From positions 34,104,757 to 34,168,756 of the forward strand of contig NC_134842.1 of the NCBI RefSeq assembly GCF_965363235.1: a stretch of 64,000 bases of DNA, written 5' to 3'. Positions 9,775-64,000 of the stretch are shown piece by piece. The position numbers were made by a program, and so were the translations under genes. The DNA comes from Mytilus galloprovincialis. Its lineage: Eukaryota. How positions within the stretch are numbered: position 1 is the stretch's first letter; the number at the start of each line of letters is the position of its first letter. The notes under the pieces are model-generated. The model was not told the origin of the DNA and did not search any database. It was given only the letters and a program-made list of their open reading frames with translations.

Positions 9775-9965
9775 AACAAAAACAACCAGATGCTCCGCAG
9801 GGCGTAGCTTTATACGACCACAGAGGTCGAACTCTGAACAGTTGGGCAAGTATGGACACAACATTTAAGCTTGATACAGCTCTGAATTTGGATTGTGATT
9901 AAATAGTTGACACAACATAGGTTTCTGACACAGAATGAATGTGGTCTGAGAAACTTAAACCATGG
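9775..9965. repeat. Segment X: about 190 bp present again as an inverted copy at 45240-45425. Contains the TATACGACC motif.
   Basis: 9775-9965 CAGATGCTCCGCAGGGCGTAGCTTTATACGACCACAGAGGTCGAAC...GACACAGAATGAATGTGGTCTGA equals the reverse complement of 45240-45425. Confidence 0.75.
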
Positions 9966-11345
9966 AAGTATTATATTGACAGGAACTACAACGATTAATT
10001 AGCATTTATTTATAACCCGGGTAGCCCTGTAGAAAAGATATGGAAACTGTCTAATTAATACGCTGTCGTTAATTTCTTTTGTGACTATCTGCGATGCCGC
10101 AGTCATAAATTGACCAGAGATACTTCTTATCAATCACGTGGTTTTAATCGAGACAGCTTAACAATATTACCTGTCGGAAAACACCTTTACTTATTCCAAT
10201 CGCCTCCGTAGACCTTTATTCGTGAACAACTTATTTAAACAAATCGACTGATGCATAAAAAATGAAAATCGACCCAGAATTAATTATTCTACAACGATTT
10301 GAAATAGTGAGTGACATTATTTTATTAGTTTGTGGGTGAAGTTTAAATCGCGATTAAGGTGTGTTCCGGTTACCGCCGGTTAACATTAAATATATTTGAT
10401 AAATATTAAAACTGTGAAGTTTAGAGTAATATATATGGTTAAGTTACTGGATAATCCTGGAAAGTAGAAATTTCCAGTTTACAATACGAAAATTAATCGA
10501 GCAAGTACCAATCAACAAAATACAGCAGAAGAAAACAGAGATCTAACTACGTTATATAGATATTTATATAATACATTTCTGTCCCCTAAAATATGTTAGC
10601 ACTATCCGACCAAATGAAACCGTCCAAATGATACTGGTAAATATTATTGAACAGTCGCACAAGTATATGTATAATGTCACTATACAAATCCTTGAGTCGC
10701 AGTACTAAAAAGTATTTCAACGCATCGGGGTTCAGCTGAACAGTCGTATATATACCAACCAATGATCTTACCCTGGATTTAGAACGAAGCTTAATAATTC
10801 CTACATTTACTCAAAATCTCTTTGATCCGTTTTGATTTTATCAGAACGATCATTTACAATCGTCTTAAATATGCAGGAAATGTGTGCCACTCAATGGAGT
10901 AAACAGTAGTTATTATATAATCACAACTTGCGATATATATTACATATAGTGCACTTTCTACCGAAAAAATAAATCAATAAAAATGAGGCATTTATTCAAT
11001 AATTTGGTACAAATTTCCATTGTCAATGTGTTTTTCTATAGAATTAATGATGACTCGCACTAATCCATCAATCACTCAATCGGCACAGTTAGGTAACGGA
11101 ATCTGCCGAGGTTTGCCGATTGCTGTTTCCTAAAAATTGATCACAACTTTTGATTTCTTCGTTTATTTCCGTTATCCCGAAAGCAACCGAGAATGACAAT
11201 ATTGTAGGGCACCACACGCTGGTATGTAAATAACGTGCCATGTTTCAAGCTAATTAACATGTCATTAAATTGGGCGCGGCATCGCAGATGAAACGTTTGA
11301 AGTCGGGTCGTAGTAGTTCCTGTCAATATAATACTTCCATGCTTA
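9960..11345. mobile_element. TIR-bounded insertion of about 1.4 kb. TIR CATGGAAGTATTATATTGACAGGAACTAC...CTGCGATGCCGC at both ends, inverted. No convincing ORF.
   Basis: 9960-10110 is nearly identical to the reverse complement of 11200-11345. The element separates segment X from the satellite array here, but is absent from the inverted copy at 44640-45240. Confidence 0.6.
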
Positions 11346-12125
11346 AACTTAACCCAAAAACTTAAAAATTTTAAATTGGACATTTACCTATTATGGTCCA
11401 ATATCCAAAATCTAAATACATGGTTAGATTCAGCATATCATAGAACCCCAAGAATTGTCCTTCTTTTACTTTAAGGGTCCTTAAACTTTACAGATTGACT
11501 TCTTTCATGGTTATAGTTAGGTTAGATGTTTTAGGTTAGGGTTAGGTTTTAGGGTTAGAGCTAGTGCTAGGTTTAGGAATCAGTTAGGGTAAGGTTTGGG
11601 GTTAGGGATAGTTTAGTATAGCTCTATATGGCTTGGTACTCCTAAAGTAAAAGAAGGCCCAAGAATTCAATTTTTTATGAAATCAAATAATGTTCAATTT
11701 TAGACCCTTTAGACCTCAATGTGGACCAATTTGATAAACAGGCCCAAATATTAAAAATCTAAATACATGGTTAGATTCAACATATCAAAGAATCCCTAGA
11801 ATTCAATTTTTGTTGAAATCTAACAAATTTTAATTTGGGACCCCGATTTGGACCAACTTGAAAACTGGGCCCATAATCAAAAATCTAAGTACATGTTTAA
11901 TTTCAGCATATCAAAGAACCCAAAGAATTTGATTTTTGTTAAAATCAAACTAAGTTTAATTTTGGACCCTTTGGACCTTAATGTAGACTAACTTGAAAAC
12001 AGGACCAAATATTAGGAATCTAAATACACGGTTAGATTCGGCATATCAAAGAACCCCAATGATTCATTTTTTGATGAATTCCAATATACGACCAAAACAT
12101 TTTCAATTTTTGCGGTCGCATAAAA
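11340..12125. repeat. Satellite array, about 140-150-bp unit, about 5 copies. An inverted copy of the same satellite lies at 44250-44640.
   Basis: Repeating unit ...AATCTAAATACATGGTTAGATTCAGCATATCAAAGAACCCCAAGAATTCAATTTTTGATGAAATC...GGACCAATTTGAAAACAGGCCCAAATATTAAAA... The array ends in the TATACGACC...GGTCGCATA hairpin at 12084-12122. Confidence 0.8.
11480..11620. repeat. Degenerate interstitial telomere-like tract (TTAGGG/TTAGGTT)n
   Basis: ttaggttagatgttttaggttagggttaggttttagggttagagctagtgctaggtttaggaatcagttagggtaaggtttggggttaggg. Confidence 0.6.
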
Positions 12126-12917: not shown

Positions 12918-12983
12918 CTTTTGATTATTCTTGCAATCATCACTTTTTCTTCATTCTGTGCAAAATTCATTCCAATACAGTTT
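12918..12983 (-). CDS. CYP4 paralog A exon 11 (heme-binding Cys loop)
   Basis: Acceptor ttttcag|AAACTGTATTGG. Translation (R)NCIGMNFAQNEEKVMIARIIKR, completing FSAGPRNCIG. Donor AAG|gtatga. 66 nt. Confidence 0.85.
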
Positions 12984-13379
12984 CTGAAAAGTTAAATTAT
13001 ATTAATTAAATCGTCATATATAAAATATAATTATATCTTCCAAATTAATCAAGAAGAAATGATGAGAAATGCATTGCTTATTTGATGTTTGCTTAGTATA
13101 AGTGGTAAATATTGCATGTATATTCTTTATGAGGGTGTACTGGTAAGTGTGTGCTCAATTAAATGTAATATTTATAGTATGTGAAATTTATATTCAGTCC
13201 AATGGAAGAACATTTCACTTGGGTACAGACTACAGTTTGTGTGATTGTTTTTTTTTTTTATATTGTGTGACTAAGCTCTTAAATTTTCATCATGGTATTG
13301 CTTTCAAATTTCTCTCCTCAACATCCCAATGCATTGAATTTTACCTTGGTCACAAAAAAAAAACCTGGTGTAGAACACA

Positions 13380-14128
13380 ATATATCCCATTCTTGATATG
13401 GGAGATAACTCATTATTGAATAAAAATATTTGGTCAAACTATATGGATCCATCTCATAAAGCTGCATACCTCATATCTTTTTTGGTTTATTAAATAATTA
13501 ACTCATATTTACCTTTTAACCATAGAAATAGGAGCACATCTATAAGGAGATGTCACATAAGGAGTATTTTGCACAAATACCTCTGCTTTACATGGGAGAT
13601 AACTCATATTTCACTTGAATCAACTGAAGTTTTAGCAAACTTTCATGATGGTTTTTGAAGATAAAAATTGGAATTATAATATTTTTTTATTAGTTTAGAA
13701 TTTCATGGCAAGTAAGTCTTGTGTTTTAAGCTCTTCTTTCTCTGATTAATATTGGAGAAAGAAAGAGCTAAAATCAAGGTTAGATTCACTTGATCTAAGT
13801 CAGGGGTTTACACAGTATATATTGGAGATGATACATATCTTACTGGAGCCAGCAAATAATAAAGTAAAAGTTCAAGGATCTGATGTGAATATGGGAGATT
13901 ATCCTCATTGATATAGGAGACAACTCATTTATAACTCCGCACCTTTTCTCAAAACATGTCTTATTATACAGATCTTTCCAATAGTGTTTTTCCCTCAAAT
14001 CTCATGGTTTATTACAGAAATAGTTTTTATTTAACTTGTTCCCGAAAGAAAAAAGTTTTAAGAAAAAGGTATAAAGTAATTACCAGTTATGAGTTATCTC
14101 CCATATCAAGGTCAGATAAATATTTACC
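13380..14128 (-). repeat. Intron-10 tandem array in paralog A: degenerate copies of the exon-10 3' end, splice donor and downstream TATCTCCC motif
   Basis: Repeated GATGGATCCATATAG.TTTACTCCATTTTCAGCTGGACCAAGgtaaat...TATCTCCCATATCAAG-like units, about 100-200-bp period. Same position as the arrays at 31200-31529 (B) and 62797-63330 (C). Confidence 0.7.
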
Positions 14129-14210
14129 TTGGTCCAGCTGAAAATGGAGTAAAGCTATATGGATCCATTTCATGATGTTTGTCTCCCTCAAATCTCTCTG
14201 GTCTAAACTC
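14128..14210 (-). CDS. CYP4 paralog A exon 10 (PERF motif)
   Basis: Acceptor tttctag|GAGTTTAGACC. Translation EFRPERFEGDKHHEMDPYSFTPFSAGPR. Donor AAG|gtaaat. 83 nt. Confidence 0.85.
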
Positions 14211-16476: not shown

Positions 16477-16609
16477 CAGCAAAAAGGAAGGTATCGACTT
16501 CTGCCCTGATTTCATCATCCGTCAGTCCGACACCATTGTCATCTTTGGCTGTTATTAATATATCAAGGAAATCCAAGTGTTTCTTCTTCTCTGTTTCTTT
16601 ACTTTCATT
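16477..16609 (-). CDS. CYP4 paralog A exon 7 (I-helix first half, EVDTFLFAG)
   Basis: Acceptor ccaag|AATGAAAGT, with an in-frame TGA just upstream in the intron. Translation NESKETEKKKHLDFLDILITAKDDNGVGLTDDEIRAEVDTFLFAG. Donor G|gtaatt. 133 nt. Confidence 0.8.
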
Positions 16610-17261
16610 CTTGGATGATCATTTATAAAATATATTAGATTTAAATTTAATTCTATCATTGCTTGATAATCAAAGAAAAAAAATATAGTCAAAATAGTTT
16701 CTTTGCTTATTTATAATACTGTCAAGTTAAAGAACCAACAATTGAGAGAAATTGTTTCATTATATCACAACTTACTTTATTAAGAATTTTCATGACCTAA
16801 TTTTGAGAATCAAAATTTCTTATGTATTTTTTATAATAATATTTTGGTTATATGTTGACTGACAGGGTTTGGTGTAAAATTATGAGTGAAATCAATTATC
16901 TCCCCTTAAATATATGATTTTATTTTTGTCCAGAAGTGGAACACATTTTTTTTATTGACCAGGAACAATTTATAAATATTGATTTACTTAAATCAATTTT
17001 TATTTGCAGAAAATGCTATTAATTGAATCAACCCTAGATGTGGTAATTTTGAAATATAAAAGACATAAGTTTAAAGTATACTGTGGATTTGTGTATTTTC
17101 TTGGGTATCATTTTTTGGATTTGGGGAAATTTGTATTGTGCGGATATTTAATTTCATGGTTTTGCCAAATTCTACATTCAAGAATTTAAAACATTTATTC
17201 TTCGTTAAAATTTAAATTTGCATTAATATTTATCCTCCAAATCCCCCATGAGAGTACCTAC

Positions 17262-19629: not shown

Positions 19630-20336
19630 CTATAAAAGGAATAGGAATGAAAAATGAAAACAATCTGTAGGACTTAATGAAAGAAGAAATGTACAAATTT
19701 TTCATTTTACACTGATAATAATACAGCAATGAAGATAATAGAATAGATTTATCTTTATACTTTATGCATTTTCTTAAAAGAATGTTTTCTGAAGCTGAAG
19801 CTTGTCTCCCCATGCTGGATTTTCTCACTTTGTTGTAGATCCATTAATGGCTATGAGCTGTTTTCTACTTTTTGGTCAGTAGTTGTCTCTTTGACACATT
19901 CCCCATTTCCAATTTCATTTTTATATATCTGATATAAATGCTTCTTGAGGAATTCTGTCAATCTTAAGTCTTCTGTTAAAACGAACATTAGATAAAGAAA
20001 GTCCTGATAGTTTCATAAATTGTCTTTGCTCAACACAATCATTGTTCCCTGTTGCAATGTCAAAACTATTAGTAAAAATTTCACCTTAGTATTTCTATTG
20101 AAATTTGCAATGCCAGTCTATTCTTTCATTTTACAAAATAATATAAATCTGAAGTATATTTGTCAATATCTTTTACATTTCGTAGGATGTCAAATTTTGA
20201 TGTGAAGAAATTACAAAGAATTCAATTATATTATCTTAGAAATTCAATATTTCTATGCTAAACTTAAGGAATGAACAAGTACATGTATTGATTTATTTAT
20301 ATAGACACAAGTATCTTTGATTTAACCTAAGAATGT

Positions 20337-20500
20337 ATCATTTAATTTAATATGTTTAAGGCAGGGGGAGATAATTAATATGTTTAATGCAGGGGGAGAA
20401 AACTAATATGTTTATTTCAGGGGGAGATAATTAATATGTTTAATGCAGGGGGAGAAAACTAATATGTTTATTTCAGGGGGAGATAATTAAATATGTTTTT
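20337..20500. repeat. 28-bp minisatellite (GTTTAATGCAGGGGGAGATAATTAATAT)n, about 6 copies, with one inverted copy at 20670-20710
   Basis: Read directly; in intron 2 of paralog A. Confidence 0.85.
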
Positions 20501-21311
20501 AATGCAAGACAATCATAAACAAAAATGTATTTAATATAGCTAAGGTATTAATATTATTTTATGAAACTTATTTATTTTAGAAAATGGAGGTTACCACGCT
20601 CTTGTTTTCTTGATATATTGCAAATTACTATTAAAAAATAAAACTGATTCACATTATTTTAATATTTCCTTAAATTATCTCCCCCTGAATTGAACACATT
20701 AAACATATTTCATAATAACCAAACTTTATTATTTTTACATAAAATTGTACATGTAACGTTGTATTGTTAGATGAGGGTCTATATGTGGTTTTTATAATCA
20801 AGAATAATGGGAGAAAAATTGAAGATATAGAGAAAAATTTGGCCGAAAATATTGAATAAAAATTATTAGATGCTAAATTGAAAATTCAATTGAAAAGACC
20901 AAAACATATTTGAAAGAATGTTTAGTAGAACAAAAAATGTAAAGAAATTAAAGAATAAAAATATTCAAAATTCCCTGTCGAGAGCCTCTTTCATATCGAT
21001 CTCATTAGTTTGTCACCCCATACCACCTTTTCCCCTTAAGGTACTGTAGATTTATTTATTTTAGCTGATACTTATTTTCTTGGATTGAAAAAAAAAATGT
21101 ATTTTAGTAACAATCATATTTGATATAGTGGTAAGTAAAAGTCTGGATTTAAACCTATAGAAAGTTCGTGATTTGTTAAAAACATGTAAATTTGTGGTTT
21201 ATCAAAACCCATAAAATCCACAAAAAATGGTAACCCACGAATAATAATGAATCCACCTGTACAGAACACTTGAAAAAACAATACTATTGAAAGGATCTGA
21301 AATATCTATAC

Positions 21312-30160: not shown

Positions 30161-30821
30161 CTTTAAAAAGAATAAAATTATACCAAGATTTAGTGATGTG
30201 AATCAATAACATAATTCAGATTGATGATTAAAGAAAATACATCAACTATTTTGATCATAAATTGTTAAAATGTTTTCCTTTTCTATGGTCTCACTAACAA
30301 TCAAACCAGAATGTTGACTGTAAAATGAGAAATTATTGTGTGCATTTGTTACTGTCATTTCATCATTTTAGACTAAAATGTGATTTTAATTTTTGTAATA
30401 TTGAGAAAATTTCGAGTTTAATTCAAATAAAAAATTAAAAAATGCGAGTTTTAATTATTGTGGTTATAAATAACCCTGTCACATTTTTCGCAGTGATAAA
30501 AACATCACAACAATTCCTTAATTTACAGTAAGTGAAACTTAGTGATTTGAAAAGAGGTTTCTGTGCATTTTTTTTATCATTGATTAAATGTTGAGTTTAA
30601 TTTGTGATGTAGGGTTGCTGTCTTACTGATCATTGATTCTTATCCAACATTGATTTTCATTCATTTTGAAATTCAATGAAAAAAAAAATCTTTTGTTTTA
30701 TAAGTTATGCAATTGTATCATTGAACATGAAATTGGTGAAATAGTTAATTGGATAATCTGTTAGCAAAAAGGGAAGGGTATATATTCACAAGAATCTGTA
30801 TATACAACTTAAATGGCATAC

Positions 30822-30887
30822 CTTTCTACAATTCTTGCTATCAAAACTTTCTCTTCATTCTGTGCAAAATTTAATCCAATACAATTT
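30822..30887 (-). CDS. CYP4 paralog B exon 11 (heme Cys loop)
   Basis: Acceptor tcttcag|AAATTGTATTGG. Translation (R)NCIGLNFAQNEEKVLIARIVER. Donor AAG|gtatgc. 66 nt. Confidence 0.85.
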
Positions 30888-31199
30888 CTGAAGAAAAAAA
30901 ATATGTATAAGAAGCTAATACAGATACAATCACAAGGAAATTTCTAAATTTGTCTTTCTTTCTATAAAAAAATTACACTAGCTTAAGTTGCCTTGATGTA
31001 CATTTCAAATATGTTCTGATGAGAGCAAGCCAGTTCTAAAATTAATATGAATCTGGTTTAATATCCTCATTTCAGCAGAAAAGTGAGTAATTTGTAGAGA
31101 TGCTTGAGAAACCATTTTATAAGGAAAGACCATGTATGTCTGTCTGCGAAAAAAGGTGTAAAACTAAATGTGTTTCTCTCTGTATTAGGGTTTGTCTTA

Positions 31200-31529
31200 A
31201 TGATGTTCATCTCCCTGCATTATAAGGGAGATAACTGGTTCCATAAAAATGAAGTAGAACTATGAATCTGTTTCAAGGTGATCTAGTCCCTGCAATATAG
31301 GGGAGATAATTCATATTTAACTTGGTCCAGGAGAACATGAAGTTAAACTAAAAGGATCCATCTCATGAAGTTAAAAAATGTCTCCCTCAAATCTCCCTGC
31401 AGCAAAGGGGGATAATACATATTTTCCTTGGTCCAACAGAAAATAGAGTAAAACTAGAAGGATTCATCTCATAAATGTGTGGCTCCTTTAAATCTTTCTG
31501 CTAAACAAGGGAGATACTTCACATTTACC
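31200..31529 (-). repeat. Intron-10 tandem array in paralog B (degenerate exon-10-3'/donor copies, about 105-bp period, about 4 copies)
   Basis: Repeated ATGGATCC(T/A)T..AGTTTTAC...CTGGACCAAGgtaaat.. and GGGAGATAA motifs immediately downstream of true exon 10. Confidence 0.7.
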
Positions 31530-31611
31530 TTGGTCCAGCTGAAAATGGAGTAAAGCTGTAAGGATCCATCTCATGATGTTTGTCTCCCTCAAATCTCTCT
31601 GGTTTAAACTC
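31529..31611 (-). CDS. CYP4 paralog B exon 10 (PERF)
   Basis: Acceptor ttttcag|GAGTTTAAACC. Translation EFKPERFEGDKHHEMDPYSFTPFSAGPR. Donor AAG|gtaaat. 83 nt. Confidence 0.85.
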
Positions 31612-32291
31612 CTGAAAATCAAATATACAACTTTTATAGAAACTAGAAACTAATGGGGTTCATTTCCATGGCCCTGACTCAATTAGGAAAAATTGTTCAC
31701 AATCAATGGGTCAGGATGACCATAGCAATCGATCATAGTCTCTGTACTTAGCTGTTTCTTTTAAATATTTGTCCATCTAGACAGGAAACAACTATTGGAC
31801 TGGACTTTGATCAGTATTTTTTAAAGTCCTTTTTAAATAGTCTGCAAATGAATAACTTTAGCAACAACTAATTAATTTTGCCAGAACATTATTCAAACTT
31901 ATCGTATTAGAAAGGTTTTGAAGAAACTATAAGCATTGACATATTTAAAAAAAAAGTTAGTGTAGGTGCACAAGTGTGAAACTTTACAATTTTGCATTTA
32001 CAATTAAGATTTTAAAATAATAAAACAAGTTTCATCAGTTACATTATGTTTGCCTTGAATATTTTGAAAAATAACATGAAGAGAAATAATTAATTTGAGG
32101 ATGCTTAACAAAAATGGACATATTATTTCAGATATTTTACATCTAGTTTGAGCTTCATCAGAAATAAGGAAAAACTACCTTTTGTGGAAAAACTTCAACC
32201 CTGACAGTAAGAGTGTAGTATCTAAACATAAAAATACATCTATTTTTTCTGCACGGACAGAAAATCATCAAATATATTTAATTTAACTTAC

Positions 32292-39431: not shown

Positions 39432-40282
39432 CTGAAAACACATTTATGTATATTATAACAACAAGGACAACAACAGCAACACCACTTGATTTTCAGAGGG
39501 TTACATGGTTAGTTTTTACTAATCTTCCCCAAGCCCTCATCAATTAAAACTAATTTCTATAACAAATCTAGCTGCTACATGCAGCTGCTTAAAGCTTGTG
39601 ATTAACAGTGAAGCAGGCACCTTTAAAATTTCTGAATTGAATGTCTTATCAACCACATTTAGGTGTGTATTCACTACCAGCTTTTTTACCCAAGACATCA
39701 TGTGGTTGGTAGAGGGAATGTGTATCATACACAACTATCATACATCACTGAAGACTCTGCAGTCGTTTTTTTTTTAAATAAAAAAAACCAAGAATGTGTC
39801 CATAGAACATGGATGCCCCACTCACACTATCATTTTCTATGTTCAGTGGACCCTGAAATTGGGGTTAAAACTCTAATTTGGCATAACGATTAGAAAGATA
39901 ATATCATAGGGAACATGTGTACTAAGTTTCAAGTTGATTGGACCTCAACTTCATCAAAAACTACATGTACCTTAACTAAATACTTTATCCTAAAGTGGGA
40001 CAGACGGAGGAACAGATGAATGGTCGGACAATTGAACTAAGGAATGAACGAATAGACGAACAAATGGATGCACAGACCAAAAAACATAATTCCCCTAAGT
40101 GGGGCATAAAAATCTTTATAGCTTTAAAAATCAGTTTTCTCATATGACTTTAAAAGATCTTATCAAGCTAAACTTTAAGGAAAACATTCCATCAAAATTT
40201 TACTGATAATTAAATTCTAATTATTGTTTGCATAAAACTTTCAACTGGTATCAAGAGTTTTTTTTCTGTACTGATTTTGATT

Positions 40283-40420
40283 GCACATGTACATGAGGAG
40301 TGTATAGGGAAGGGAGATAAACTATATGTGTTTTGGTTGTTTTGATTACAACCAATTATTATATTGGCACTAATCCAGATACCATTAAAGTTGTGATGTG
40401 ATCTAATAATTTTGTAACTT
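40283..40420 (+). pseudogene. Inverted, degenerate duplicate of paralog B exon 2 (pseudo-exon) inside B intron 1
   Basis: About 125 nt at roughly 90% identity to the sense sequence of B exon 2 (CACGAGGAGTGTATAGGGAAGGGAGATAAACTATATGTGTTTTGG...CCATTAAAGTTGT), on the opposite strand. In-frame stops. Confidence 0.7.
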
Positions 40421-43529: not shown

Positions 43530-44640
43530 TTTTTTTGTTCTTTTTATACGACCGCAAAATTTGAAAAATTTTTCGTCGTATATTGCTATCACGTTGGCGT
43601 CGTCGTCTGCGTCGTCGTCGTCGTCCGAATACTTTTAGTTTTCGCACTCTAACTTTAGTAAAACTGAATAGAAATCTATGAAATTTTAACACAAGGTTTA
43701 TGACCACAAAAGGAAGGTTGGGATTGATTTTGGGAGTTTTGGTCCCAACATTTTAGAAATTAGGGGCCAAAAAGGGTCCAAATAAGCATTTTCTTGGTTT
43801 TCGCACTATAACTTTAGTTTAAGTTAATAGAAATCTATGAAATTTTGACACAAAGTTTATGACCACAAAAGAAAGGTTGGGATTGATTTTGGGAGTTTTG
43901 GTTCCAACAGTTTAGGAATTAGGGGCCAAAAAAGGGCCCAAATAAGCATTATTCTTGGTTTTTGCACAATAACTTTAGTTTAAGTAAATAGAAATCAATG
44001 AAATTTAAACACAATGTTTATGACCACAAAAGGAAGGTTGGTATTGATTTTGGGAGTTGAGGTCCCAACAGTTTAGGAATTAGGGGCCAAAAAGGGACCC
44101 AAATAAGCATTTTTCTTGGTTTTCGCACCATAACTTTAGTATAAGTAAATAGAAATGTATGAAATTTAAACACAAGGTTTATGACCATAAAAGGAAGGTT
44201 GGTATTGATTTTGGGAGTTTTGGTCCCAACAGTTTAGGAATAAAGGGCCCAAAGGGTTCAAAATTAAACTTTGTTTGATTTCATCAAAAATTGAATAATT
44301 GGGGTTCTTTGATATGCTGAATCTAAAAATGTACTTAGATTTTTGATTATTGGCCCAGTTTTCAAGTTGGTCCAAATCGGGGTCCAAAATTAAACTTTGT
44401 TTGATTTCATCAAAAATTGAATGATTGGGGTTCTTTGATATGCCAAATCTAACTGTGTATGTAGATTCTTAATTGTTGGTCCCGTTTTAAAATTGGTCTA
44501 CATTAAAGTCCAAAGGGTCCAAAATTAAACTAAGTTTGATTTTAACAAAAATTGAATTCTTGGGCCTCTTTGATATGCTGAATCTAAACATGTACTTAGA
44601 TTTTTGATTATGGGCCCAGTTTTCAAGTTGGTCCAAATCA
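43530..44640. repeat. Composite satellite region: a (TCG)n microsatellite plus a hairpin at 43545-43630; an about 180-bp-unit array x4 at 43640-44250; and the inverted copy of the 11340-12125 satellite at 44250-44640
   Basis: TTTCGCACTMTAACTTTAGT...GGTCCCAACAKTTTAGRAATTAGGGGCCAAAAAGGGTCCAAATAAGCATT repeats. Followed by GGGTCCAAAATTAAACTTTGTTTGATTTCATCAAAAATTGAAT..., which is the reverse complement of the left-hand satellite. Confidence 0.8.
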
Positions 44641-44870
44641 GGATCCAAATTATTATATTAAGTATTGTGCAATAGCAAGAAATTTTCAATTGCTCAGTAT
44701 TCAGCAATAGCAAGAAATCTTCAATTGCACAGTATTGTGCAATAGCAAGAAATCTTCAATTGCACAGTATTGTGCAATAGCAAATATTTTCAATTGCACA
44801 GTATTGCACAATAGCAAGAAATATCTAATTGCACAATATTGTGCAATAGCAAGAAATTCCAATTGGATTT
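44640..44870. repeat. About 38-bp minisatellite with an internal palindrome (ATTGCACAGTATTGTGCAATAGCAAGAAATCTTCA)n x6
   Basis: Read directly; TTGCACA..TGTGCAA palindromic cores. Confidence 0.85.
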
Positions 44871-45239
44871 CAATTGGAGTTATCTTTCTTTGTCCAGAAT
44901 AGTAGTTGAATCAACTTAAAACATTGTTTTATACAATATACAATGTATATTCACTTTTACTACCAACTGATAGATTAAAACAATCTTTACCATTCAGTTA
45001 TAACAAGCACTTTTTTTACATTTTAATATTTTATGATGTATTTAAATGAGTAGTTATTGTTGCAAACTTCATTAGAAATTTGAATTGAGATCAGTTTTGA
45101 AATAAGGGAAAGGGGGATGTGAAAAAAAAATTGGGGGGTCAATTTTTTTCATTTCAGATTTCATAAATAAAAAGAAAATTTCTTCAAACATTTTTTTGAG
45201 AGGATTAATATTCAACAGCATAGTGAATTGCTCAAAGGC

Positions 45240-45425
45240 AAAATTTTTTGTTTAAGTTCATTAGACCACATTCATTCTGTGTCAGAAACCTATGCTGTGT
45301 CAACTATTTAATCACAATCCAAATTTAGAGCTGAATCCAGCTTGAATGTTGTGTCCATACTTGCCCCAACCGTTCAGGGTTCAACCTCTGCGGTCGTATA
45401 ATGCTGCGCCCTGCGAAGCAACTGG
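45240..45425. repeat. Inverted copy of segment X (9775-9965)
   Basis: Reverse-complement match, including CGACCTCTGCGGTCGTATAATGCTGCGCCCTGCG. Confidence 0.75.
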
Positions 45426-45699
45426 TTTTATTTTAAAAGAGATTTGAAAAACAAAGCAATCATTTAACATAAATAGTCGTGCACTGCTCTATTAAAATAA
45501 ACTAATTTCAGTGGAGATTAATAAATGCTAGTCCAGGAAAACAATGGAATTGAATTACAAAGGTTTAAATTAATTATTCTTTTCAGGATCTTTTAGTATT
45601 CTGTGTAATAAAACAGATATATGTGTATAATGGGTATATACATGTATGTGAAAAATACTAGGCATGCAGTATTTACTTTCTCGAGAATGACATTTTACC

Positions 45700-48985: not shown

Positions 48986-50113
48986 GTTCAAAGTGTACCC
49001 ATGACATTTAATCACATATGTTCTCAATACAAACCATTCTATATATCAAAATAATTTGGCTTTTACATTGGAATTATATGTCATAGTACATGTATATCTG
49101 GTATTCAGGCTAATAAGTATGGTCAGATCATAAGTTTTCGTATGTCATATGAATTTGTACTATGCATGCTTTTTTAATGGAAATTGTGACATCACAATGC
49201 ATTGTTAGTAGTACAAAAACCAATGAGACACGGATATTTAAAGATATGCTGGTCTGGCCACCCTTAATAAGACAAAGTAATATAATTTGTAATGTAGACT
49301 TTCTTCTGTGATATATTGTGTCATTTTCCTGGGTATGTTTGTGTCTGATAATACTGACACAAAATTGGACTAGGATAGCCACTGTCAACAAAGCTAGCCA
49401 ATAGTTCTAACAATCCTTTGATGTTTGTTCTTGTATTGTCATTGGTCATGTTGGTGATAGGTTGTATTAATCTACCAGTACATACATATAATACATGTGC
49501 ATATGCCTTTGAAGAGAATGGACCATTGCCAGGAGTCTTTATGTTTTTGAAGTTTGTCATTCACCCTCATTGTTTAAAACTGATCATTAACATGATTAAG
49601 ATATCAAAAATGAGGTAATGCTGATGAGACAACTTATATTAATCATTTGTTAATCCACCACCTGGAGATCTATAAGTTCAAGGATGATTGCTAACTTCTA
49701 CTGTAATAATTCATGCATACCATACATCCTTCAAAAATGAGCAAAACCAATGTTGAAAAGGATGCTGGAATTTAACAAATTCAGGAAACAGCATGGTTTA
49801 ACTTTAAGCTAATATAACATTAAACAACATGAACAGAGAACCATTATTGCAGAATTTAGCTACCAAAGACAATCATTCGGAGGACCACAGGCTTTTGAAA
49901 TCCAGAAGGCACATAGTTCTGTCATGTCTGCAGTGGCTGGAAGTGCATACAATGTAGATCACAGTACATCTGCCTCATCTTATCTCTCTGGGTCAGATGA
50001 TGAAATAATGTCAAGGCAAAAACTTGTATGATACACCATTGAACATGTTGAAAATAGATATACGTTTATACTGTCAAAATTTCAGATACATACAGTAAAT
50101 AACTGGTGCTACC

Positions 50114-53298: not shown

Positions 53299-53633
53299 GT
53301 AAGTTATGAAAAATATTCTGAACTAAAGTTATTTAGAATAGCTTGAAGCCTTTTAAAAATTGTTATTTGAATAAAAGAAGTTTTGATTCATGCTTGCATA
53401 CTTTTCTTTCATCATGGTGTAAGAACATGTATGTGCAGTTTATGTTTGATTCCTCATTTGCTGCTTTTGAGAATCCCTGAAGACAAAATATGAGGACGAT
53501 GTTCAGTCGCTTCAACACATTCAGTACGCTTAGTACCAATTGCAAATTGAATATAAAACTCATTTGTGCAAATAAATGTTAAAGGTTAAAGGTAAGGATC
53601 ATGATTTGACTCACTTGAAACAAAATCATTCAT

Positions 53634-56063
53634 ATGTGGCGTAATCAATTCCATCTAAGATTTGATGGTCAGTTCTTAATCAGTTTAATGATCTTTCATC
53701 TTGTTTAATGTGACACTTTATACGATACATTAGTTGCACAGTTGAACTGCAATAGCATTTACAAGTTTATCCAAATAATCTAAGACCATTAATCAATGCC
53801 TTACATAAATTAAGAACATGTTTATAGCTCGATCTTGTAAGAAACTTTATGTATTGGTCAGAGATATTAGAGTAGTAGCTTGAAGTAACATGTTGTTTTA
53901 TATAGCTGGAATTTAGTAACGTTTTGTATTGGAAGTTATAATTGTGAACCTTCAAATATATTATATATATACATGTACTTTTATAAGATTAAACATGTGA
54001 ACATTAAGGAGACTTAGTTCAATTCTAACAGTGACTTTATGGTGGCATATATACAATAGCTAGTTCCCTATGTTAACGGGCAACATGGATTACGATCCCG
54101 GATACGTAGATCCGAAATAATGACATAGTTCTAAAACACACACAAGAAAGCCCCGTGATATCTGGTGGAGGTACCCGTGGTTAACTATATCAGTTACCGG
54201 AGTTATGATGTCTGCGAAATCTGGACGAATTAGCAAAGGCATGGCGTCTTTGGAAAGCATAAACATTTTTTGGATTTATTCAATTGAAACTAGCAGTGCT
54301 GTTATGATCAAATTAGACGAGAGATAGAAATAGGATAACTTTGTATATGGCATAATGTAATTAAGTGACTTGCTGTAAATATTTGTGAACTTTTGTGTCA
54401 GCCTTTTTGTTTCTTTGTTTTTTTGGATACACTTTTTACCAAACATGAATGTTAACGTTTATACGCGAGAGTATTCAGTATTATATTGATGAACATTGGA
54501 GAAGACGCTGGAGAACAATTTCGATGACTAGAAACCTGAGATGACTCTGAGTTGTGTGTTGGTGACAATGTATATATGTAAATACCAGTATGGACTGGCG
54601 AATCTGTCGATCCATAACCAGCAACCTATCTGCAGAGACCGTGAGAAATGAAGGAAAATGGCACCCCTGTTGAAAGATTAGAAGAAGTGGTTCCGCAAGT
54701 TCAAACCGAAGAAGTCATGCATGTGGACAATATTTTCATTTTTGTAAATAACTTTAGTTTTCATAAATGTTTTTATCCATTCAGAATGTTTTATGCCTAG
54801 GTTTAGTTTTTTATTGTATATTTTTTTTGCATTTTATTTTGTATTACACATGTTTGATTAAGCTAATTTTTAATCTCTTGTTATTACGAGAGTGGGCGTA
54901 TTGGGTGTAGTTAAGTTAACCGAGAAGGGTTGCTTATACTAGTTGGAGGTTCATGGGAGTGTCCATGTGAAGATGATTTACAGTGTTGGTAGTTCTATGG
55001 TGATATGGTCACATAGAAGTGAAAATTGCAGCTAATTAGTGCTGATTTTCTGAATTGGATTGCCCAGAAATAATGATTAGTTGATTTTAATTGATGCTTT
55101 TAATTATTTTATCATTTCGTTTACGCTTGGATTAACGGTCAAAATTCCGGAAAGACCTTACCATAATGTATTTGAATAGATTTATAATTGTCAAACTTGT
55201 GTGTATTATATTTTTTATGATTTTTGTTTAGTGCCTCTTTTGTAGTTATAAATATCAAGAGTTTGAAGTTGAAAGGATAATTGTAAATTTAGATTTTAAG
55301 TAATCTTTTTGCAAGTTTTCCACAACTATTCACTACGTAAATTGATAAATTACATGGTATAGCAATTATCATTATTTTTTTATTATTATTAGTTTAGATT
55401 TTTTTAAGTAGTTTTAGTAAAAGAAAATTTTTATTTTTTAATGTTCACATTGCCTCCCCCTATTTTTTACTTATATAATATTTTTGGTATGATTTTTTTT
55501 AATTCGAGTGAAAACTAATTTTGTTTAGCGGGGAGTGATGTGGCGTAATCAATTCCATCTAAGATTTGATAGTCAGTTCTTAATCAGTTTAATGATCTTT
55601 CATCTTGTTTAATGTGACACTTTATACGATACATTAGTTGCACAGTTGAACTGCAATAGCATTTACAAGTTTATCCAAATAATCTAAGACCATTAATCAA
55701 TGCCTTACATAAATTAAGAACATGTTTATAGCTCGATCTTGTGAGAAACTTTATGTATTGGTCAGAGATATTAGAGTAGTAGCTTGAAGTAACATGTTGT
55801 TTTATATAGCTGGAATTTAGTAACTTTTGTATTGGAAGTTATAATTGTGAACCTTCAAATATATTATATATATACATGTACTTTTATAAGATTAAACATG
55901 TGAACATTAAGGAGACTTAGTTCAATTCTAACAGTGACTTTATGGTGGCATATATACAATAGCTAGTTCCCTATGTTAACGGGCAACATGGATTACGATC
56001 CCGGATACGTAGATCCGAAATAATGACATAGTTCTAAAACACACACAAGAAAGCCCCGTGATA
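53634..56063 (+). mobile_element. LTR-retrotransposon-like non-autonomous element of about 2.4 kb in intron 5 of paralog C. About 527-bp direct LTRs (53634-54160 and 55539-56063). PBS-like TGGTGGAGGTACCCGTGG 2 nt after the 5' LTR. Polypurine tract AGCGGGGAGTGA abutting the 3' LTR. No long internal ORF.
   Basis: Two near-identical 527-bp direct repeats, each starting ATGTGGCGTAATCAATTCC and ending AAGAAAGCCCCGTGATA. PPT and PBS are positioned as in LTR elements. Confidence 0.65.
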
Positions 56064-56351
56064 CATATTTGTTGGGTGAGAAAGGAAAGTTAATAATTGG
56101 GTGCCCAAAAAGTAACAACTTTCATTTGGAATAATTCATTGCACTGTATTGGCACCAACATTTACTTTGTTTGTCCATACATGTACTGAAATTAATCATT
56201 AGAATGGATGCCACTTGATTTCAATACAATATTATAGCCATTCATGCAGTATCTTACAACATAACACATGCTTAATTTGAATTATTTTGGCTTTGATATA
56301 TTGATTTCAAACTTTTATATGTAACTGACAAGTAATGCCTTTATTTTGTAG

Positions 56352-61865: not shown

Positions 61866-62713
61866 GTAAGTCTACAAATTAGGTGCTTCGAAGGTGTTTC
61901 CCAATGTCAAATCAAGGTCAAAAACAATTTTTTTTTTAGAATTACTTCTGAAAGGAGGGTAAAAATTGTGTATTGACAGGGTTGACAAATCCAGCTATTT
62001 TTTCCTGTCAATGGAATCCACACTCATAGACTTAAATAAGATGTACTACTAGGGGTTCATTATTACTCGTTGGAAAAACAATGTTTATGGATCTCATGGG
62101 TACAGGTGAACCAAGAAATTAACTGTTCAATGACTAACAATGTTTTTATAGGTTTGAATGCAGACTTTGGGAAAACAAGAAATAAACTATTCATGAAAAT
62201 GTTTCCTTTCCTAAGTACACTAAAATTGGTAACAACGAAAATAGTGAATCCACAGTATAAGGGACAGGTTTAGAATGTAATATGTTCAATATGAAAAATC
62301 AGCTGTTGTTAATTGGATATAAGATTTAACAAGAGATATTTCATTAGATTGAATACAAATCCTATTATGTTTAAAAGATATAGGAAGATGTGGTATGAGT
62401 GTCAATGAGACAACTCTTCATCCAAGTAACAATTTAAAGTAAAGTTATACAATTTTCTAGCTAAGATACATTATACATTACCAAATATCCAGAAACTTTA
62501 TGACATATTATTTAATATCAGATATAAAATTTGACAAGAGCATGTTTATGTGTCATTCTTTTTTTTACAGTTGTTAAACAAGCAATCCATGAATATAATT
62601 TGAAATTGTATAATTAAATGAAGCACCTTTTCACATTCTTTAGTCCTTTCAAACTTTTCTTATCTATAAAGCAAATACTGATAAGTTAGAATACTATTTG
62701 TTTTCAATTCTAG

Positions 62714-62796
62714 GAGTTTAAACCAGAGAGATTTGAGGGAGACAAACATCATGATATGGATCCATATAGTTTAACTCCATTTTCAGCTGGACCAAG
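62714..62796 (+). CDS. CYP4 paralog C exon 10 (PERF)
   Basis: Acceptor caattctag|GAGTTTAAACC. Translation EFKPERFEGDKHHDMDPYSLTPFSAGPR. Donor AAG|gtaaat. 83 nt. Confidence 0.85.
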
Positions 62797-63330
62797 GTAA
62801 ATGTGAAGTATCTCCCCTGAAATGTAAAACAATTAACGAGACAAATATCGCAAGATTTTAATTCAGACAGACTTCCTAGGTAGATTCTTATAGTTGTACT
62901 CTATTTCTGCTTGACAAAGATAAATTTGAGTTATCTCCCCTGAAATGTAAAACAATTAAGGAGAGACAAATATCGTAAGATTTTAATTGAGACAGATTCC
63001 TAGGTAGATTCTTAAAGTTGTACTCTATTTTCTGCTTGAAAAATGTAAATTTGTGTTGTCTCCCCTTTCCTACAGAAACTTTCAATCCAGAAAGACTTCG
63101 TCAGTTGATCCTTATAACTTTACTCAATTTTCTGCTTGACCAAGGTAACTATTAATTATCTCTAATTATGCAGGAAGACTAATTGAAACAAACACAGTTG
63201 ATCCTTATAGTTTTACTCCATTTTCTGGTTGATTGAGATGAACATAAATTATCTCCCCTATAATGCAGAGGATCCTAATAGGTTTACTCCATTTTCAGTT
63301 GGACCATGGTAAATACAAATTATCCACCAT
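62797..63330 (+). repeat. Intron-10 tandem array in paralog C: about 5 copies of an about 105-bp unit. Each unit carries a degenerate DPYSFTPFSAGP exon-10 tail, a GTAAAT donor, a TATCTCCCCTGAAATG motif and an acceptor-like TTCTTATAG.
   Basis: Unit starts at about 62797, 62895, 62998, 63095 and 63200, e.g. GATCCTTATAGTTTTACTCCATTTTCTGGTTGA.. and GGTTTACTCCATTTTCAGTTGGACCATGgtaaat. Confidence 0.8.
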
Positions 63331-63572
63331 AAATTAGTGGATAAATACAGATGATAAAAGTCAATGAAAAGGACTTTTATAATTGTATTCCTTTCATGGA
63401 GAAGAATGAAGATAATTATGAATGTCAGCAGTTTGAAAGAGACAAAAAGCATTTCAATTTACTAATTTTCTGAACTACTACAGTATTTATTAATAAGGAG
63501 AAAACATCAATTATTCAGCTTTTGACTTTATTCAATTTTCCACCCAGGCAATGTGAATATTTTTTATTTCAG

Positions 63573-63638
63573 AAATTGTATTGGCCAAGCATTTGCACAA
63601 AATGAAGAAAAGGTCCTAATTGCTAGACTAGTCAATAG
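63573..63638 (+). CDS. CYP4 paralog C exon 11 (heme Cys loop). Exon 12 lies beyond the window end.
   Basis: Acceptor ttttatttcag|AAATTGTATTGG. Translation (R)NCIGQAFAQNEEKVLIARLVNR. Donor AG|gtaata. 66 nt. Confidence 0.85.
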
Positions 63639-64000
63639 GTAATATTGTTGTATTTTAGAATAAAAAATTTTTGGGCAAAAATTAAAAGATGTAAAATAAG
63701 GAGATCTGGTTTGATTGCCAATGAGACAACCATTAACCAAAGTTCAAATGAAGCACATGTAAGCAACAGTAGGCAAAATGATTTTTTTCAAAGATGATCA
63801 AAAACCCATACTGTATAGTTGACTTTAAAAGGCCCAAACATGAAAAATAAGAAAGACATAAATTGAGAAAAACTAACAACCTAAATTATATATGAAAAAA
63901 CAAGTTACAAAAAGAAATAGGCTAGGCATGAAATAATGTCAACCACTAAACTACAGGCTCATGACTTGGGACTGGCACATAATGAATGTGGTTAAACATG

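Follow-up and report, generated by a model that had tools for sequence, protein, structure and literature searches.

Degenerate tandem copies of exon 10 downstream of its donor site in three Mytilus CYP4 paralogs: probably a junction-spanning intronic minisatellite within a small gene-conversion zone

Three CYP4 paralogs (A, B and C, with A and B on the minus strand) carry tandem degenerate copies of exon 10 just 3' of the true exon in the window, by which we mean the whole 64-kb stretch of Mytilus DNA analysed here. Such copies raise the question of whether they serve as splicing signals or alternative exons or are only the products of local duplication, and of how they have stayed recognisable in anciently diverged genes. 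Tandem copies in all three paralogs, at approximately the coordinates found here, and their homologous intron position were both anticipated by the original prediction; the copies were recovered by blastn, nhmmer, a repeat search and TRF, and the array occupies the homologous position in A, B and C.

Each array comprises 5-6 head-to-tail copies of a unit of ~100 nt (nhmmer E down to 1e-23), which consists of a nearly complete exon 10 and the first ~20 bases of intron 10 and has TTATCTCCCC as its 3' terminus. The earlier description of tandem units of this general size was sound, but its count (4-5) and length (~105 bp) need revision to 5-6 copies and about 66 to 136 nt per pseudo-unit. In addition, the units were thought to re-create the last ~35 nt of exon 10, whereas up to ~73-81 of its 83 nt are reproduced, and the supposed acceptor-like YTTCTTATAG turned out to be copied exon sequence (GATCCTTATAG, GATCC(A/T)TATAG, codons D-P-Y-S). 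When C exon 10 and its flanks were used as the blastn query, copies were found in C at 62865-62964 (E 1e-18), 62982-63066, 63089-63162, 63200-63265 and 63270-63333 and in B at 31500-31407 (E 5e-17) and 31399-31299 (E 1e-21), while those in A were weaker and fell between 14011 and 13340. The expected alignment of the units to exon 10 was therefore confirmed as significant homology (blastn E 1e-21 to 1e-7; nhmmer E 4.7e-23 to 1e-4 for most units), and blastn detected no exon-10-like match outside the three arrays within the 64-kb window. The repeat search of C revealed six in-register copies with spacings of 123, 125, 100, 93 and 71 nt, and TRF reported a period of 125 at 62765-63066 in C and of 102 at 31301-31601 in B, so that the head-to-tail arrangement, these periods and a spacing of 71-125 nt are those of a minisatellite. 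At all loci, the units share the strand and register of the parent exon and abut the true exon and one another. The CAG at unit junctions aligns to the exon's own CCAG (P-E of PERF), although in unit C-3 it may instead be the intron-9 acceptor. An Rfam covariance-model search of 62500-63700 gave zero matches at E <= 1.

The features of the three loci are listed in Table 1. Units 1 and 2 of C are 85% identical and therefore represent a recent duplicate pair, and units 2 and 3 of B have clear orthologues in M. trossulus (85-88%). The A array is the most decayed of the three (57-71% identity to exon 10); its intron 10 starts with GTAAATATTTATCTGACCTTGATATGGGAGATAAC, in which the motif is followed by an inverted copy of itself, and an unrelated spacer of ~160 nt separates units b and c.

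Table 1. Positions of true exons, array units and the 28-bp minisatellite in the window (PWM, splice-site position weight matrix score).
Feature	Position	Strand	Description	Evidence
C true exon 10	62714..62796	+	EFKPERFEGDKHHDMDPYSLTPFSAGP-R	sequence; tblastn with orthologous proteins
C exon-10 donor	62797-62798	+	GT	PWM 8.3, ~25th percentile of 46 true donors
C intron-10 start	62797..62861	+	unit 0 intronic tail, GTAAATGTGAAGTATCTCCCCTGAAATG..., with TATCTCCCC motif	
C pseudo-unit 1	62862..62985	+	long type, 124 nt; AT in place of the donor GT; stops in frame	
C pseudo-unit 2	62986..63073	+	GT kept (aat/GTAAAT); motif variant TTGTCTCCCC; stops	sub-threshold PWM
C pseudo-unit 3	63074..63171	+	exon 5' part kept (TTCAATCCAGAAAGA), possibly intron-9 acceptor; donor GTAACT	
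C pseudo-unit 4	63172..63265	+	donor lost (ATGAAC); exact TTATCTCCCC	
C pseudo-unit 5	63266..63338	+	truncated: exon's 3' 43 nt (DPNRFTPFSVGP)	
C sixth unit (tentative)	63432..63494	+	heavily decayed	weak matches only (blastn 63432-63452; repeat families D2, D4)
C exon 11	63573..63638	+	NCIGQAFAQNEEKVLIARLVN-R, heme-binding cysteine	acceptor PWM 12.9
B true exon 10	31529..31611	-		
B array	31112..31500	-		
B pseudo-unit 1	31400-31500	-		
B pseudo-unit 2	31293-31399	-		
B pseudo-unit 3	31218-31292	-		
B pseudo-unit 4	31112-31217	-	fusion of 4 and 5	
B exon 11	30822..30887	-		
A true exon 10	14128..14210	-		
A array	13311..14016	-		
A pseudo-unit a	13881-14016	-		
A pseudo-unit b	13811-13880	-		
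A pseudo-unit c	13586-13651	-		
A pseudo-unit d	13489-13585	-		
A pseudo-unit e	13389-13488	-		
A pseudo-unit f	13311-13388	-		
A exon 11	12918..12983	-		
28-bp minisatellite	20347..20498	-	5.4 copies, A intron 2	TRF

Of the 23 pseudo-units, 20 contain in-frame stops, differ in length by a number not divisible by three, or are heavily truncated. A GTAAAT donor had been assumed for every unit; the donor GT is kept in nine of the 23, none of them in B, and is missing in the rest. Agreement with the consensus in the GT columns is 0.59, the unit mean being ~0.6 and the exon-derived parts lying at 0.51-0.66. Two observations speak against a purely neutral decay, namely the per-site value of the TTATCTCCC motif in pseudo-units (0.78-0.85 vs 0.51-0.66 for exon-derived parts) and the presence of GT in all four C units of M. 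californianus.

As would be expected from the earlier reading, arrays recur in the corresponding introns of orthologues in M. galloprovincialis, M. trossulus and M. californianus. By sequence, the window is closest to M. galloprovincialis (assembly GCA_900618805, ~95% at the nucleotide level; 90-96% at the protein level), and no deposited protein is identical to its products. In the comparison with M. galloprovincialis, identity for the array and for the rest of intron 10 was 0.970 vs 0.974 in C, 0.988 vs 0.952 in B and 0.964 vs 0.975 in A, and against M. trossulus that for B was 0.827 vs 0.863. Judging from these sequence comparisons, the arrays appear to diverge as fast as the flanking intron, with no visible purifying selection. 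Insertions of about 300 and 230 nt are found within the L004 and L002 arrays, respectively. The unit structure is identical in the window and the M. galloprovincialis assembly, and within-species variation in copy number was not seen between these two. The units of B are one-to-one orthologous with those of M. trossulus, relative to which units 4 and 5 are fused, and the units of C are not one-to-one with those of M. californianus, the unit types being different. Because unit similarities radiate in a star-like pattern from the true exon, comparing unit positions across paralogs proves neither one ancient array nor separate origins.

The distribution of arrays extends beyond these three genes but is uneven. 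No array was found at this junction in the Tegillarca granosa homologue, nor in intron 10 of the M. edulis P0009 gene (L007) or its M. trossulus counterpart (L010). Similar exon-end arrays were observed elsewhere in the CYP4 family: L007 has a large array at exon 2 (75 nt x 256), and L008, a paralog only ~43% identical, has an array at the same junction with a different unit (62 nt x 9). The latter implies either that an array has persisted for a very long time while turning over or that the junction is locally predisposed, and in this respect it also speaks against decay alone. TRF detected six to seven other arrays with a period of 60 or more in the 64-kb window; since minisatellites are so common there, occasional junction-spanning ones would be expected.

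Exon 10 itself behaves unlike the other exons of these genes. Third-position identity between paralogs is 0.82-0.89 in exon 10 vs 0.32-0.80 in other exons, and identical codons are used at 23/26, 23/24 and 22/25 conserved residues (88-96%) compared with 53-61% elsewhere (Fisher p 0.005, 1.7e-5 and 0.001). Of its 83 nt, 4-5 differ between paralogs within a genome and 6-7 between orthologues, whereas outside exon 10 orthologues are 90-98% identical and paralogs 54-83%. A derived GTAAATGTGAAGTATCTCCC is common to B and C and missing in their orthologues, and the first 20 nt of intron 10 in C are identical to those of B, unlike the corresponding sequence of orthologous B in M. trossulus and orthologous C in M. 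californianus. Homogenisation, which had been proposed as one alternative, is directly supported, as exon 10 and ~20 nt on either side are 92-94% identical between paralogs, against 54-83% for the other exons. Exon 10 is thus an interlocus gene-conversion island of ~110 nt between old paralogs. When paralogs were aligned with one another, only exons and array units could be aligned, and conversion may extend into the arrays beyond +20. It is probably because the exon-10 region undergoes gene conversion that the arrays are still recognisable in genes which diverged anciently.

Taken together, the array is probably a junction-spanning intronic minisatellite of pseudo-exons that decays neutrally within a small gene-conversion zone. 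It would have originated when a segment of ~100-115 nt, reaching from about the third nucleotide of exon 10 (or just inside intron 9) to approximately +21 of intron 10 and ending in TTATCTCCCC, was duplicated head to tail via unequal exchange or replication slippage. Splice-site logic suggests why such a duplication would be tolerated: the first copy holds the real exon and the first donor, and everything past that donor would be spliced out as intron, so that the mRNA would be unchanged and the duplication harmless. In the extra copies, none of which begins with a proper 5' exon end, stops, frameshifts and deletions have built up alongside inserted mobile elements, and splice sites have been lost at about the neutral rate; array turnover is ongoing, as seen in the recent 124-nt pair in C and the 4/5 fusion in B. 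Exon 10, being selectively constrained, may serve as an anchor for conversion among the three tandem paralogs, through which the arrays of old paralogs would still resemble the exon while other intron sequence no longer aligns.

An alternative that we regard as unlikely, yet worth weighing, is that the arrays arose independently and repeatedly, with a duplication- or recombination-prone TTATCTCCCC / GGGGAGATAA motif seeding minisatellites and local conversion. The motif is the best-conserved block of the unit and in each case forms its 3' end, at the unit junction; the conversion island is centred beside it, and relatives without an array also lack it near the donor. TTATCTCCC occurs 18 times in the window, on both strands, vs 0.31 expected, and it forms the core of two more tandem arrays, one of 41 bp in L001 (~16555-16640) and the 28-bp minisatellite at 20347-20498, whose relatedness to the array motif had been correctly noted before. 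The unit of the latter reads TTATCTCCCCCTG(C/A)A(T/A)TAAACATATTAA on the gene strand and has a lower copy number in the M. galloprovincialis assembly than in the window. This minisatellite and a partner at 20670-20703 make up the two arms of an inverted repeat (arms of 29-32 nt, 87-90% complementary and 178-296 nt apart). It was also considered as a member of a dispersed family and rejected as such, being present solely at its own and orthologous loci. Against motif seeding, the apparent GGGAGATAAC of L008 is just a copied exon segment, to be compared with the GGGAGACAAAC of A, B and C; this array can therefore do without the motif, and the unit of the L007 exon-2 array lacks such a motif. Moreover, many solitary motif sites are unrepeated, and the unit boundaries common to B, C and M. 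californianus C favour a single origin in this clade. A motif that initiates recombination is also expected to erode rather than persist (the hotspot paradox), which counts against this explanation. A literature search for the motif sequence returned unrelated primer matches only.

It is also conceivable, albeit with a low probability, that TTATCTCCCC / GGGGAGATAA rather than the pseudo-exons is the functional core, acting beside the exon-10 donor as an orientation-independent cis element (protein-binding or recombination-prone) that would nucleate tandem duplications and short conversion tracts, or as an intronic splicing element present in copy after copy of the array. If so, arrays of an exon end plus its donor would have been built time and again in Mytilus CYP4 genes and would modulate their splicing or expression, the ~100-nt arrays of A, B and C and those of L008 and L007 being examples.

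The original prediction had suggested that the array could serve as a string of decoy or cryptic exons or as a recursive-splicing or splicing-regulatory platform. In its more general form, pseudo-donors and pseudo-acceptors would act as decoy or poison exons: by drawing the spliceosome into unproductive contacts, they would adjust CYP4 output via intron retention or nonsense-mediated decay, a role that we consider rather improbable here. Mammals are known to use decoy exons (PMC6097662, PMC7373989), and besides A, B and C a fourth paralog lineage has kept an array at this junction, with conservation in at least three species. As read from the sequence, splicing in a unit behind exon 10 would lead to an immediate stop (AGA GAG ATT TGA), and the true C donor is only moderately strong (PWM 8.3, 25th percentile). 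With a splice-site PWM built from 46 true introns of the CYP4 family, a complete candidate cryptic exon of 135 nt was predicted in C between an acceptor-like site at 63174 ahead of pseudo-unit 4 (PWM 9.5) and the atg/GTAAAT donor of pseudo-unit 5 at 63309 (PWM 8.0), and a second one in M. californianus C. However, splice sites are not preferentially conserved, donors being retained at the unit average, and the sites that score like real ones are specific to each paralog: one unit-derived donor and two acceptors in C, no donor and 3-4 acceptors in B (with acceptor-like TGCAG at 31289, 31214 and 31143), and two donors and no acceptor in A. Candidate splice sites of the arrays lie at 63076, 63174 and 63309 in C and at 13512 and 13344 in A. 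Because B has no competent pseudo-donor and A no competent pseudo-acceptor, there is no common architecture. Sites also vary across species, in contrast to the intact and conserved ones of decoy exons. Regarding recursive splicing, no AG/GT site of the recursive type scores as an acceptor, the AAG/GTAAAT of the units scores below the 5th percentile of true acceptors, and TGCAG at the unit junctions precedes AGAG or GGAG rather than GT. Furthermore, the arrays evolve like the flanking intron and accept insertions of 230-300 nt, and related paralogs and the Tegillarca homologue do without an array. The copies are unused in any full-length annotated isoform or transcript-like contig checked, all of which contain the FSAGPR/NCIG join (orthologues of A, B and C in M. 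galloprovincialis, M. edulis, M. trossulus, M. californianus and M. coruscus). At or near exon 10, several of the corresponding database models are truncated. An RNA stem between exonic GGGAGAC and intronic TCTCCC was also examined and discarded, as the predicted folding of six segments covering exon 10 and the intron start did not improve on that of shuffled sequence (z -0.17 to +1.45) and the exon arm is altered without compensation in M. californianus C and L005.

That the units are fragments of a mobile element which captured exon 10 and was inserted into each paralog is very improbable. The TATCTCCCC(C)TGAAAT segment of C does resemble a subrepeat of the foldback-like inverted repeat at 20347-20703, and mobile-element insertions are frequent in these introns; nevertheless, exon-10-like copies are found solely just 3' of exon 10, in the same orientation at every locus examined and nowhere else in ~290 kb of Mytilus sequence, and they abut in register with the true exon, as expected of in-place tandem duplication. 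Finally, tandem exon duplication is the usual route to mutually exclusive exon clusters (PMC9013439, PMC6071210), and in unit C-5 the DPNRFTPFSVGP frame is still open, but a cluster of alternative coding exons that would generate P450 variants near the PERF/heme loop is effectively refuted by the stops, frameshifts or truncations of nearly all units, which also lack the exon's first nucleotides, differ from 83 nt by frame-incompatible lengths and do not each possess an acceptor and a donor (A has no scored acceptor), and by the lack of any variant exon 10 in database protein clusters.

The locus offers a compact example of a constrained exon that holds a repeat array in place, and it illustrates how concerted evolution can let such an array last longer than the neutral half-life of intron sequence. 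It is also an annotation trap, as exon-like copies with partly intact splice sites that directly follow a real exon can mislead gene predictors and RNA-seq aligners, here in the heme-loop region of Mytilus CYP4 genes that are used as xenobiotic-response markers. If the decoy or motif reading were true, these genes would offer a natural multi-paralog mollusc system for splice-site competition.

Several known systems share features with the arrays. A systematic study of 2002, as summarised in PMC9013439, described tandem exon duplications that left unannotated exon-like copies in the adjacent intron, and PMC9013439 itself reports 4,027 intronic targets in human genes. As in tandem exon duplication, the homologous intron segment in Mytilus adjoins the exon in the same orientation and is due to local duplication; unlike it, the Mytilus array is a degenerate series of 5-6 units rather than a single extra copy, its unit straddles the exon/intron boundary, and three paralogs carry it. 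Decoy exons (PMC6097662, PMC7373989) are likewise noncoding exon-like intronic elements whose inclusion introduces a premature stop, but they need intact, conserved splice sites, and those of Mytilus are eroded and inconsistent between paralogs. In Dscam-type clusters (PMC6071210), too, an exon is duplicated together with adjacent intron, and each Mytilus unit carries a GGGAGAC/TCTCCC pair, yet the Mytilus copies are noncoding and fold no better than shuffled sequence. Intronic minisatellites (VNTRs) likewise consist of head-to-tail units, tens to ~125 nt long, that are more alike near one end, may fuse or be duplicated anew, vary in arrangement and copy number among species and haplotypes, and show no visible constraint; what sets the Mytilus array apart is that its first unit is a constrained coding exon with its donor, which anchors the array and supplies an unchanged template. 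With concerted evolution it shares an exon 10 that, together with ~20 nt on either side, is as similar between paralogs as between orthologues, whereas the Mytilus tract is very short (~110 nt, about one unit) and coincides with a tandem array.

The window, whose DNA is eukaryotic, contains three 12-exon CYP4-type cytochrome P450 genes (paralogs A, B and C), which were mapped through an all-versus-all match of translated open frames and through tblastn searches in which database orthologues served as queries. Among deposited sequences, those of Mytilus are closest; one M. galloprovincialis locus of 22 kb has ~95% nucleotide identity, and the A and C proteins show their top identity to M. galloprovincialis, none reaching 100%. 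The product of exon 10 is EFKPERFEGDKHH(D/E)MDPYS(F/L)TPFSAGP-R. With exon 10 of C and its flanks as query, blastn detected five more downstream copies in C (E 1e-18 to 4e-7), two strong copies (1e-21, 5e-17) and weaker ones in B, and a row of weaker hits in A. A three-sequence nhmmer profile reproduced this pattern in all three paralogs and found no exon-10-like sequence outside the arrays in the rest of the window. In addition, a repeat search gave six in-register copies in C, with spacings of 123, 125, 100, 93 and 71 nt, and TRF reported periods of 125 for the C array and 102 for the B array. Since these approaches agree, the exon-10 array is real and far above chance expectation. The original prediction of tandem copies 3' of exon 10 in A, B and C is thereby confirmed, with corrections, its units aligning to exon 10 when computed (E 1e-21 to 4e-7 for the best copies in B and C); the array start that it gave for C, 62797, lies directly after exon 10 and is the G of the donor GT.

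Genes, exon-10 arrays, splice-like sites and other repeats (window coordinates unless a locus is named)
Feature	Position	Strand	Remark
Paralog A	exons ~23378 to 12443	minus	
Paralog B	~40752 to 30058	minus	
Paralog C	from ~50099, extends past window end	plus	
Exon 10 of A	14128-14210		conversion island: exon +/- ~20 nt
Exon 10 of B	31529-31611		conversion island: exon +/- ~20 nt
Exon 10 of C	62714-62796	plus	conversion island: exon +/- ~20 nt
C units 1-5	62862-63338	plus	segmentation
C sixth unit	63432-63494	plus	segmentation; doubtful
B units 1-4	31500-31112	minus	segmentation
A units a-f	14016-13311	minus	broken by ~160 nt of unrelated sequence
C splice-like sites	donor 63309 (unit-derived); tag/GTAGAT 62880, 63004 (fortuitous); acceptor-like 63076, 63174		weight-matrix scan
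B splice-like sites	acceptor-like TGCAG 31497 (too near donor), 31289, 31214, 31143		weight-matrix scan; no donor
A splice-like sites	donors 13512, 13344; non-unit site 14083		weight-matrix scan; no acceptor
Long-period repeat clusters	43638-44900; 11722-12073; 9800-10000 / 45230-45430		
M. edulis satellite	L007:9168-24401 and L007:44682-48676		intron 2 of P0009 gene

Other duplicated or rearranged segments lie in and around these genes. An inverted partial copy of B exon 2 occupies 40277-40369 (+) in intron 1, against the gene orientation, and matches residues 62-92 of the M. trossulus orthologue at 81% identity. In assembly GCA_900618805, the B exon 10-11 segment (L001:10001-12171 versus window 30802-31688) is inverted relative to its flanks and annotated as the 75-aa P0001, and that part of the contig lacks the remainder of B; a misassembly is one explanation, a structural or presence-absence variant the other. 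A ~560-nt segment occurs twice in the C intron between exons 5 and 6 (53619-54180 and 55529-56131; 96-100% identical, ~1.9 kb apart in a translated-ORF self-comparison). Clusters of long-period tandem repeats (161, 126, 104 and 35 nt) between B and C have related copies downstream of A and are probably shared mobile-element or satellite families.

The cleanest array is that of the M. californianus orthologue of C (L003), where the true exon is followed by GTAAATATGAATTATCTCCCCTATAATG and then by CAGAGAGATTTGATGGAGAC...GGACCAAAGTAAAC..., continuing as a series of 99-103-nt units, three well preserved and one or two decayed. A unit therefore comprises nearly the entire exon 10 together with ~21 nt from the start of intron 10, closing in TTATCTCCCC, instead of only the last ~35 nt of the exon as originally described. 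Similarly, the supposed acceptor-like YTTCTTATAG is actually a copy of the exon's GATCC(A/T)TATAG (D-P-Y-S codons), and the CAG and preceding TATAATG at unit junctions align to the exon's own TTTAAACCAG (F-K-P-E codons). Because unit C-3, which may include the intron-9 acceptor, retains more sequence (TTTCCTACAG|AAACTTTCAATCCAGAAAGA), the start of the original duplication is ambiguous, being either just inside intron 9 or at approximately exon nucleotide 3. The 124-nt units in C, a secondary variant, contain an internal duplication, and C units 1 and 2 are 85% identical.

Orthologous and paralogous loci were obtained by exact-protein look-up. The array is located at the same position in M. galloprovincialis A, B and C (L004, L001 and L009), M. 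trossulus B (L002) and M. californianus C, and a fourth M. californianus paralog lineage (L005) has one clear copy there; no array was found at exon 10 of Tegillarca granosa (L006), the M. edulis P0009 gene (L007) or its M. trossulus counterpart (L010). Orthologous introns in three Mytilus species thus carry the array, contrary to what would have refuted the original prediction, and it is conserved as a feature within the genus. Its sequence is not conserved: array and flanking intron are on par in identity, at 0.970 vs 0.974 (C), 0.988 vs 0.952 (B) and 0.964 vs 0.975 (A) when the window is compared with M. galloprovincialis, and at 0.827 vs 0.863 when window B is set against its M. trossulus orthologue. 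Unit 2 of the M. trossulus B array is interrupted by an insertion of ~230 nt (L002:~20012-20203) and a ~300-nt insertion lies in the M. galloprovincialis A array (L004:~12930-13220), both absent from the window. The window's B units pair off one-to-one with their M. trossulus orthologues (85-88%), no such correspondence exists between C units and those of M. californianus, and similarity is star-like, most units best matching a true exon and not the units of other paralogs. This is how a minisatellite undergoing turnover behaves.

The paralogs themselves are old. Their third-codon-position identity is 0.32-0.62 (A-C, B-C) and 0.43-0.80 (A-B), orthologues of all three are present in M. californianus and M. 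coruscus, and paralog alignment between exons 9 and 12 recovered nothing beyond exons and array units. In exon 10, third-position identity is 0.82-0.89, and identical codons are used at 23/26, 23/24 and 22/25 paralog-conserved residues (88-96%, versus 53-61% elsewhere; Fisher p = 0.005, 1.7e-5 and 0.001); exon 11, which is as conserved in protein as exon 10, resembles the rest of the gene in third-position identity. The exon-10 copies of the window differ from one another at 4-5 of 83 nt (94-95% identical), other exons being 54-83% identical. Window B and M. trossulus B differ here at 6 nt, window C and M. californianus C at 7 nt, and more distant paralogs at 14-19 nt, between-paralog similarity in the island being on par with that of orthologues between species. 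Moreover, GTAAATGTGAAGTATCTCCC is common to B and C of both the window and M. galloprovincialis, and GTAAATATGAATTATCTCCC stands in its place in M. trossulus B and M. californianus C. Taken together, codon identity, difference counts and the sharing of GTAAATGTGAAGTATCTCCC form the signature of short-tract interlocus gene conversion over ~105-110 nt (about one repeat unit), still ongoing after the Mytilus species split, and the codon identity supports the earlier suggestion that the array is homogenised. Interlocus exchange and within-array unequal exchange would spread and renew array units, for which a selectively constrained exon 10 would act as an unchanging template.

The copies had also been proposed to act as decoy or cryptic exons or as a splicing-regulatory platform. 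Read in the exon frame, nearly all pseudo-units are interrupted by stop codons, heavily truncated or changed in length by a number of nucleotides not divisible by three. The donor GT is kept in 9 of 23 pseudo-units (M. californianus C 4/4, window C 3/5, window B 0/3, M. trossulus B 1/5, aligned A units 1/5, L005 0/1), and per-column consensus match is 0.59 for the GT, 0.51-0.66 for exon-derived parts and 0.85 for TTATCTCCC, the intronic motif closing each unit. Donor and acceptor weight matrices were built from 46 exactly resolved introns of the gene family, and intron 10 was scanned with them, keeping the sites that reached at least the 5th percentile of scores for real sites. The resulting sets differ among A, B and C, and therefore no decoy-exon architecture is common to them. 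A complete acceptor-donor pair is confined to M. californianus C and window C (63174-63308, 135 nt), and inclusion of the latter would lead to an immediate stop (AGG AAG ACT AAT TGA). FSAGPR is joined directly to NCIG in every full-length annotated protein and in ~2-kb transcript-like contigs of A, B and C orthologues from five Mytilus species; a few truncated gene models end at or within exon 10, none via a copy. With differing splice sites, frequent loss of the GT and proteins that skip the copies, this role is not supported. The weight-matrix scan found no acceptor-scoring sequence before the unit donors, so they are not of the recursive-splice type that had likewise been envisaged.

Comparable arrays occur elsewhere in the family. 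A distant M. californianus paralog ~43% identical to window B (P0068 gene, L008:20673-21230) has a young, clean array directly after exon 10, at the same junction, with period 62, 9.0 copies and 95% matches. In its unit, GTAAG follows the final 57 nt of the gene's own exon 10, so that GGGAGATAAC in this locus is copied exon sequence. A strong donor is kept in every copy. Intron 2 of the M. edulis P0009 gene harbors an extreme array of this type, a very large satellite with 203 + 53 copies (93-94% matches) of a unit of 75 nt composed of the last 67 nt of exon 2 (IMKSNAPKAKGNIGYSFMIPWIG) and the donor GTGAGTAG, the true exon 2 (8291-~8510) lying ~650 nt upstream and exon 3 at 49214. Exon-end-plus-donor arrays have thus originated at least three times in the family. 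Given that minisatellites of period >= 60 occur about once per 9 kb in the window (TRF) and that roughly 170 exon boundaries were examined, a few junction-spanning arrays are, by rough inference, about what chance would produce if they are harmless; that all three span donors and not acceptors is not significant. We consider it quite probable that a neutral minisatellite together with gene conversion explains the locus.

The excess conservation and dispersal of TTATCTCCC are the main residue that this neutral model leaves unexplained. The motif occurs 18 times in the window, both strands included, where 0.31 would be expected; ~226 kb of Mytilus loci contain 51 copies. Eight window sites lie outside the intron-10 arrays and the minisatellite, two of them being coding GGAGATAAA (G-D-K) in B exon 2 and in an inverted pseudo-copy. 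Solitary (A/T)TTATCTCCCC(T) copies are seen in unrelated introns and intergenic DNA, e.g., at 12224, 16896, 20675, 29525, 33801 and 38671. As anticipated, the motif also forms the core of the 28-bp minisatellite in intron 2 of A (20347-20498), which is shorter by about two repeat units in the M. galloprovincialis assembly and makes up one arm of a foldback/MITE-like inverted repeat with 20670-20703 (arms of 29-32 nt, 87-90% complementary, 178-296 nt apart); a 41-bp tandem repeat in L001 likewise has the motif as its core. In pseudo-units picked by their exon-like part alone, the motif is kept at 0.78 per site and lies within one mismatch in 9/21, versus a fraction of 0.0012 in random 35-mers; it was absent near the donor in all three array-free loci (L006, L007 and L010). 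Its reverse complement matches GGGAGA(C)AA of the exon with one mismatch. An exon-motif RNA stem was rejected: fold z-scores are -0.17 to +1.45, and the exon arm has changed without compensation both in L005 (GAAGAAGAC) and in M. californianus C (GTTGGAGAC).

Among known systems, the features defining a recursive splice site, a mutually exclusive exon cluster (PMC6071210) and a decoy exon (PMC6097662, PMC7373989) were tested and are lacking, the cluster being contradicted by the disrupted frames and the decoy exon by the paralog-specific sites. Tandem exon duplications and unannotated exon-like intron copies are well documented (PMC9013439), and the locus fits best as a further case of a pseudo-exon minisatellite, here accompanied by a short gene-conversion island.
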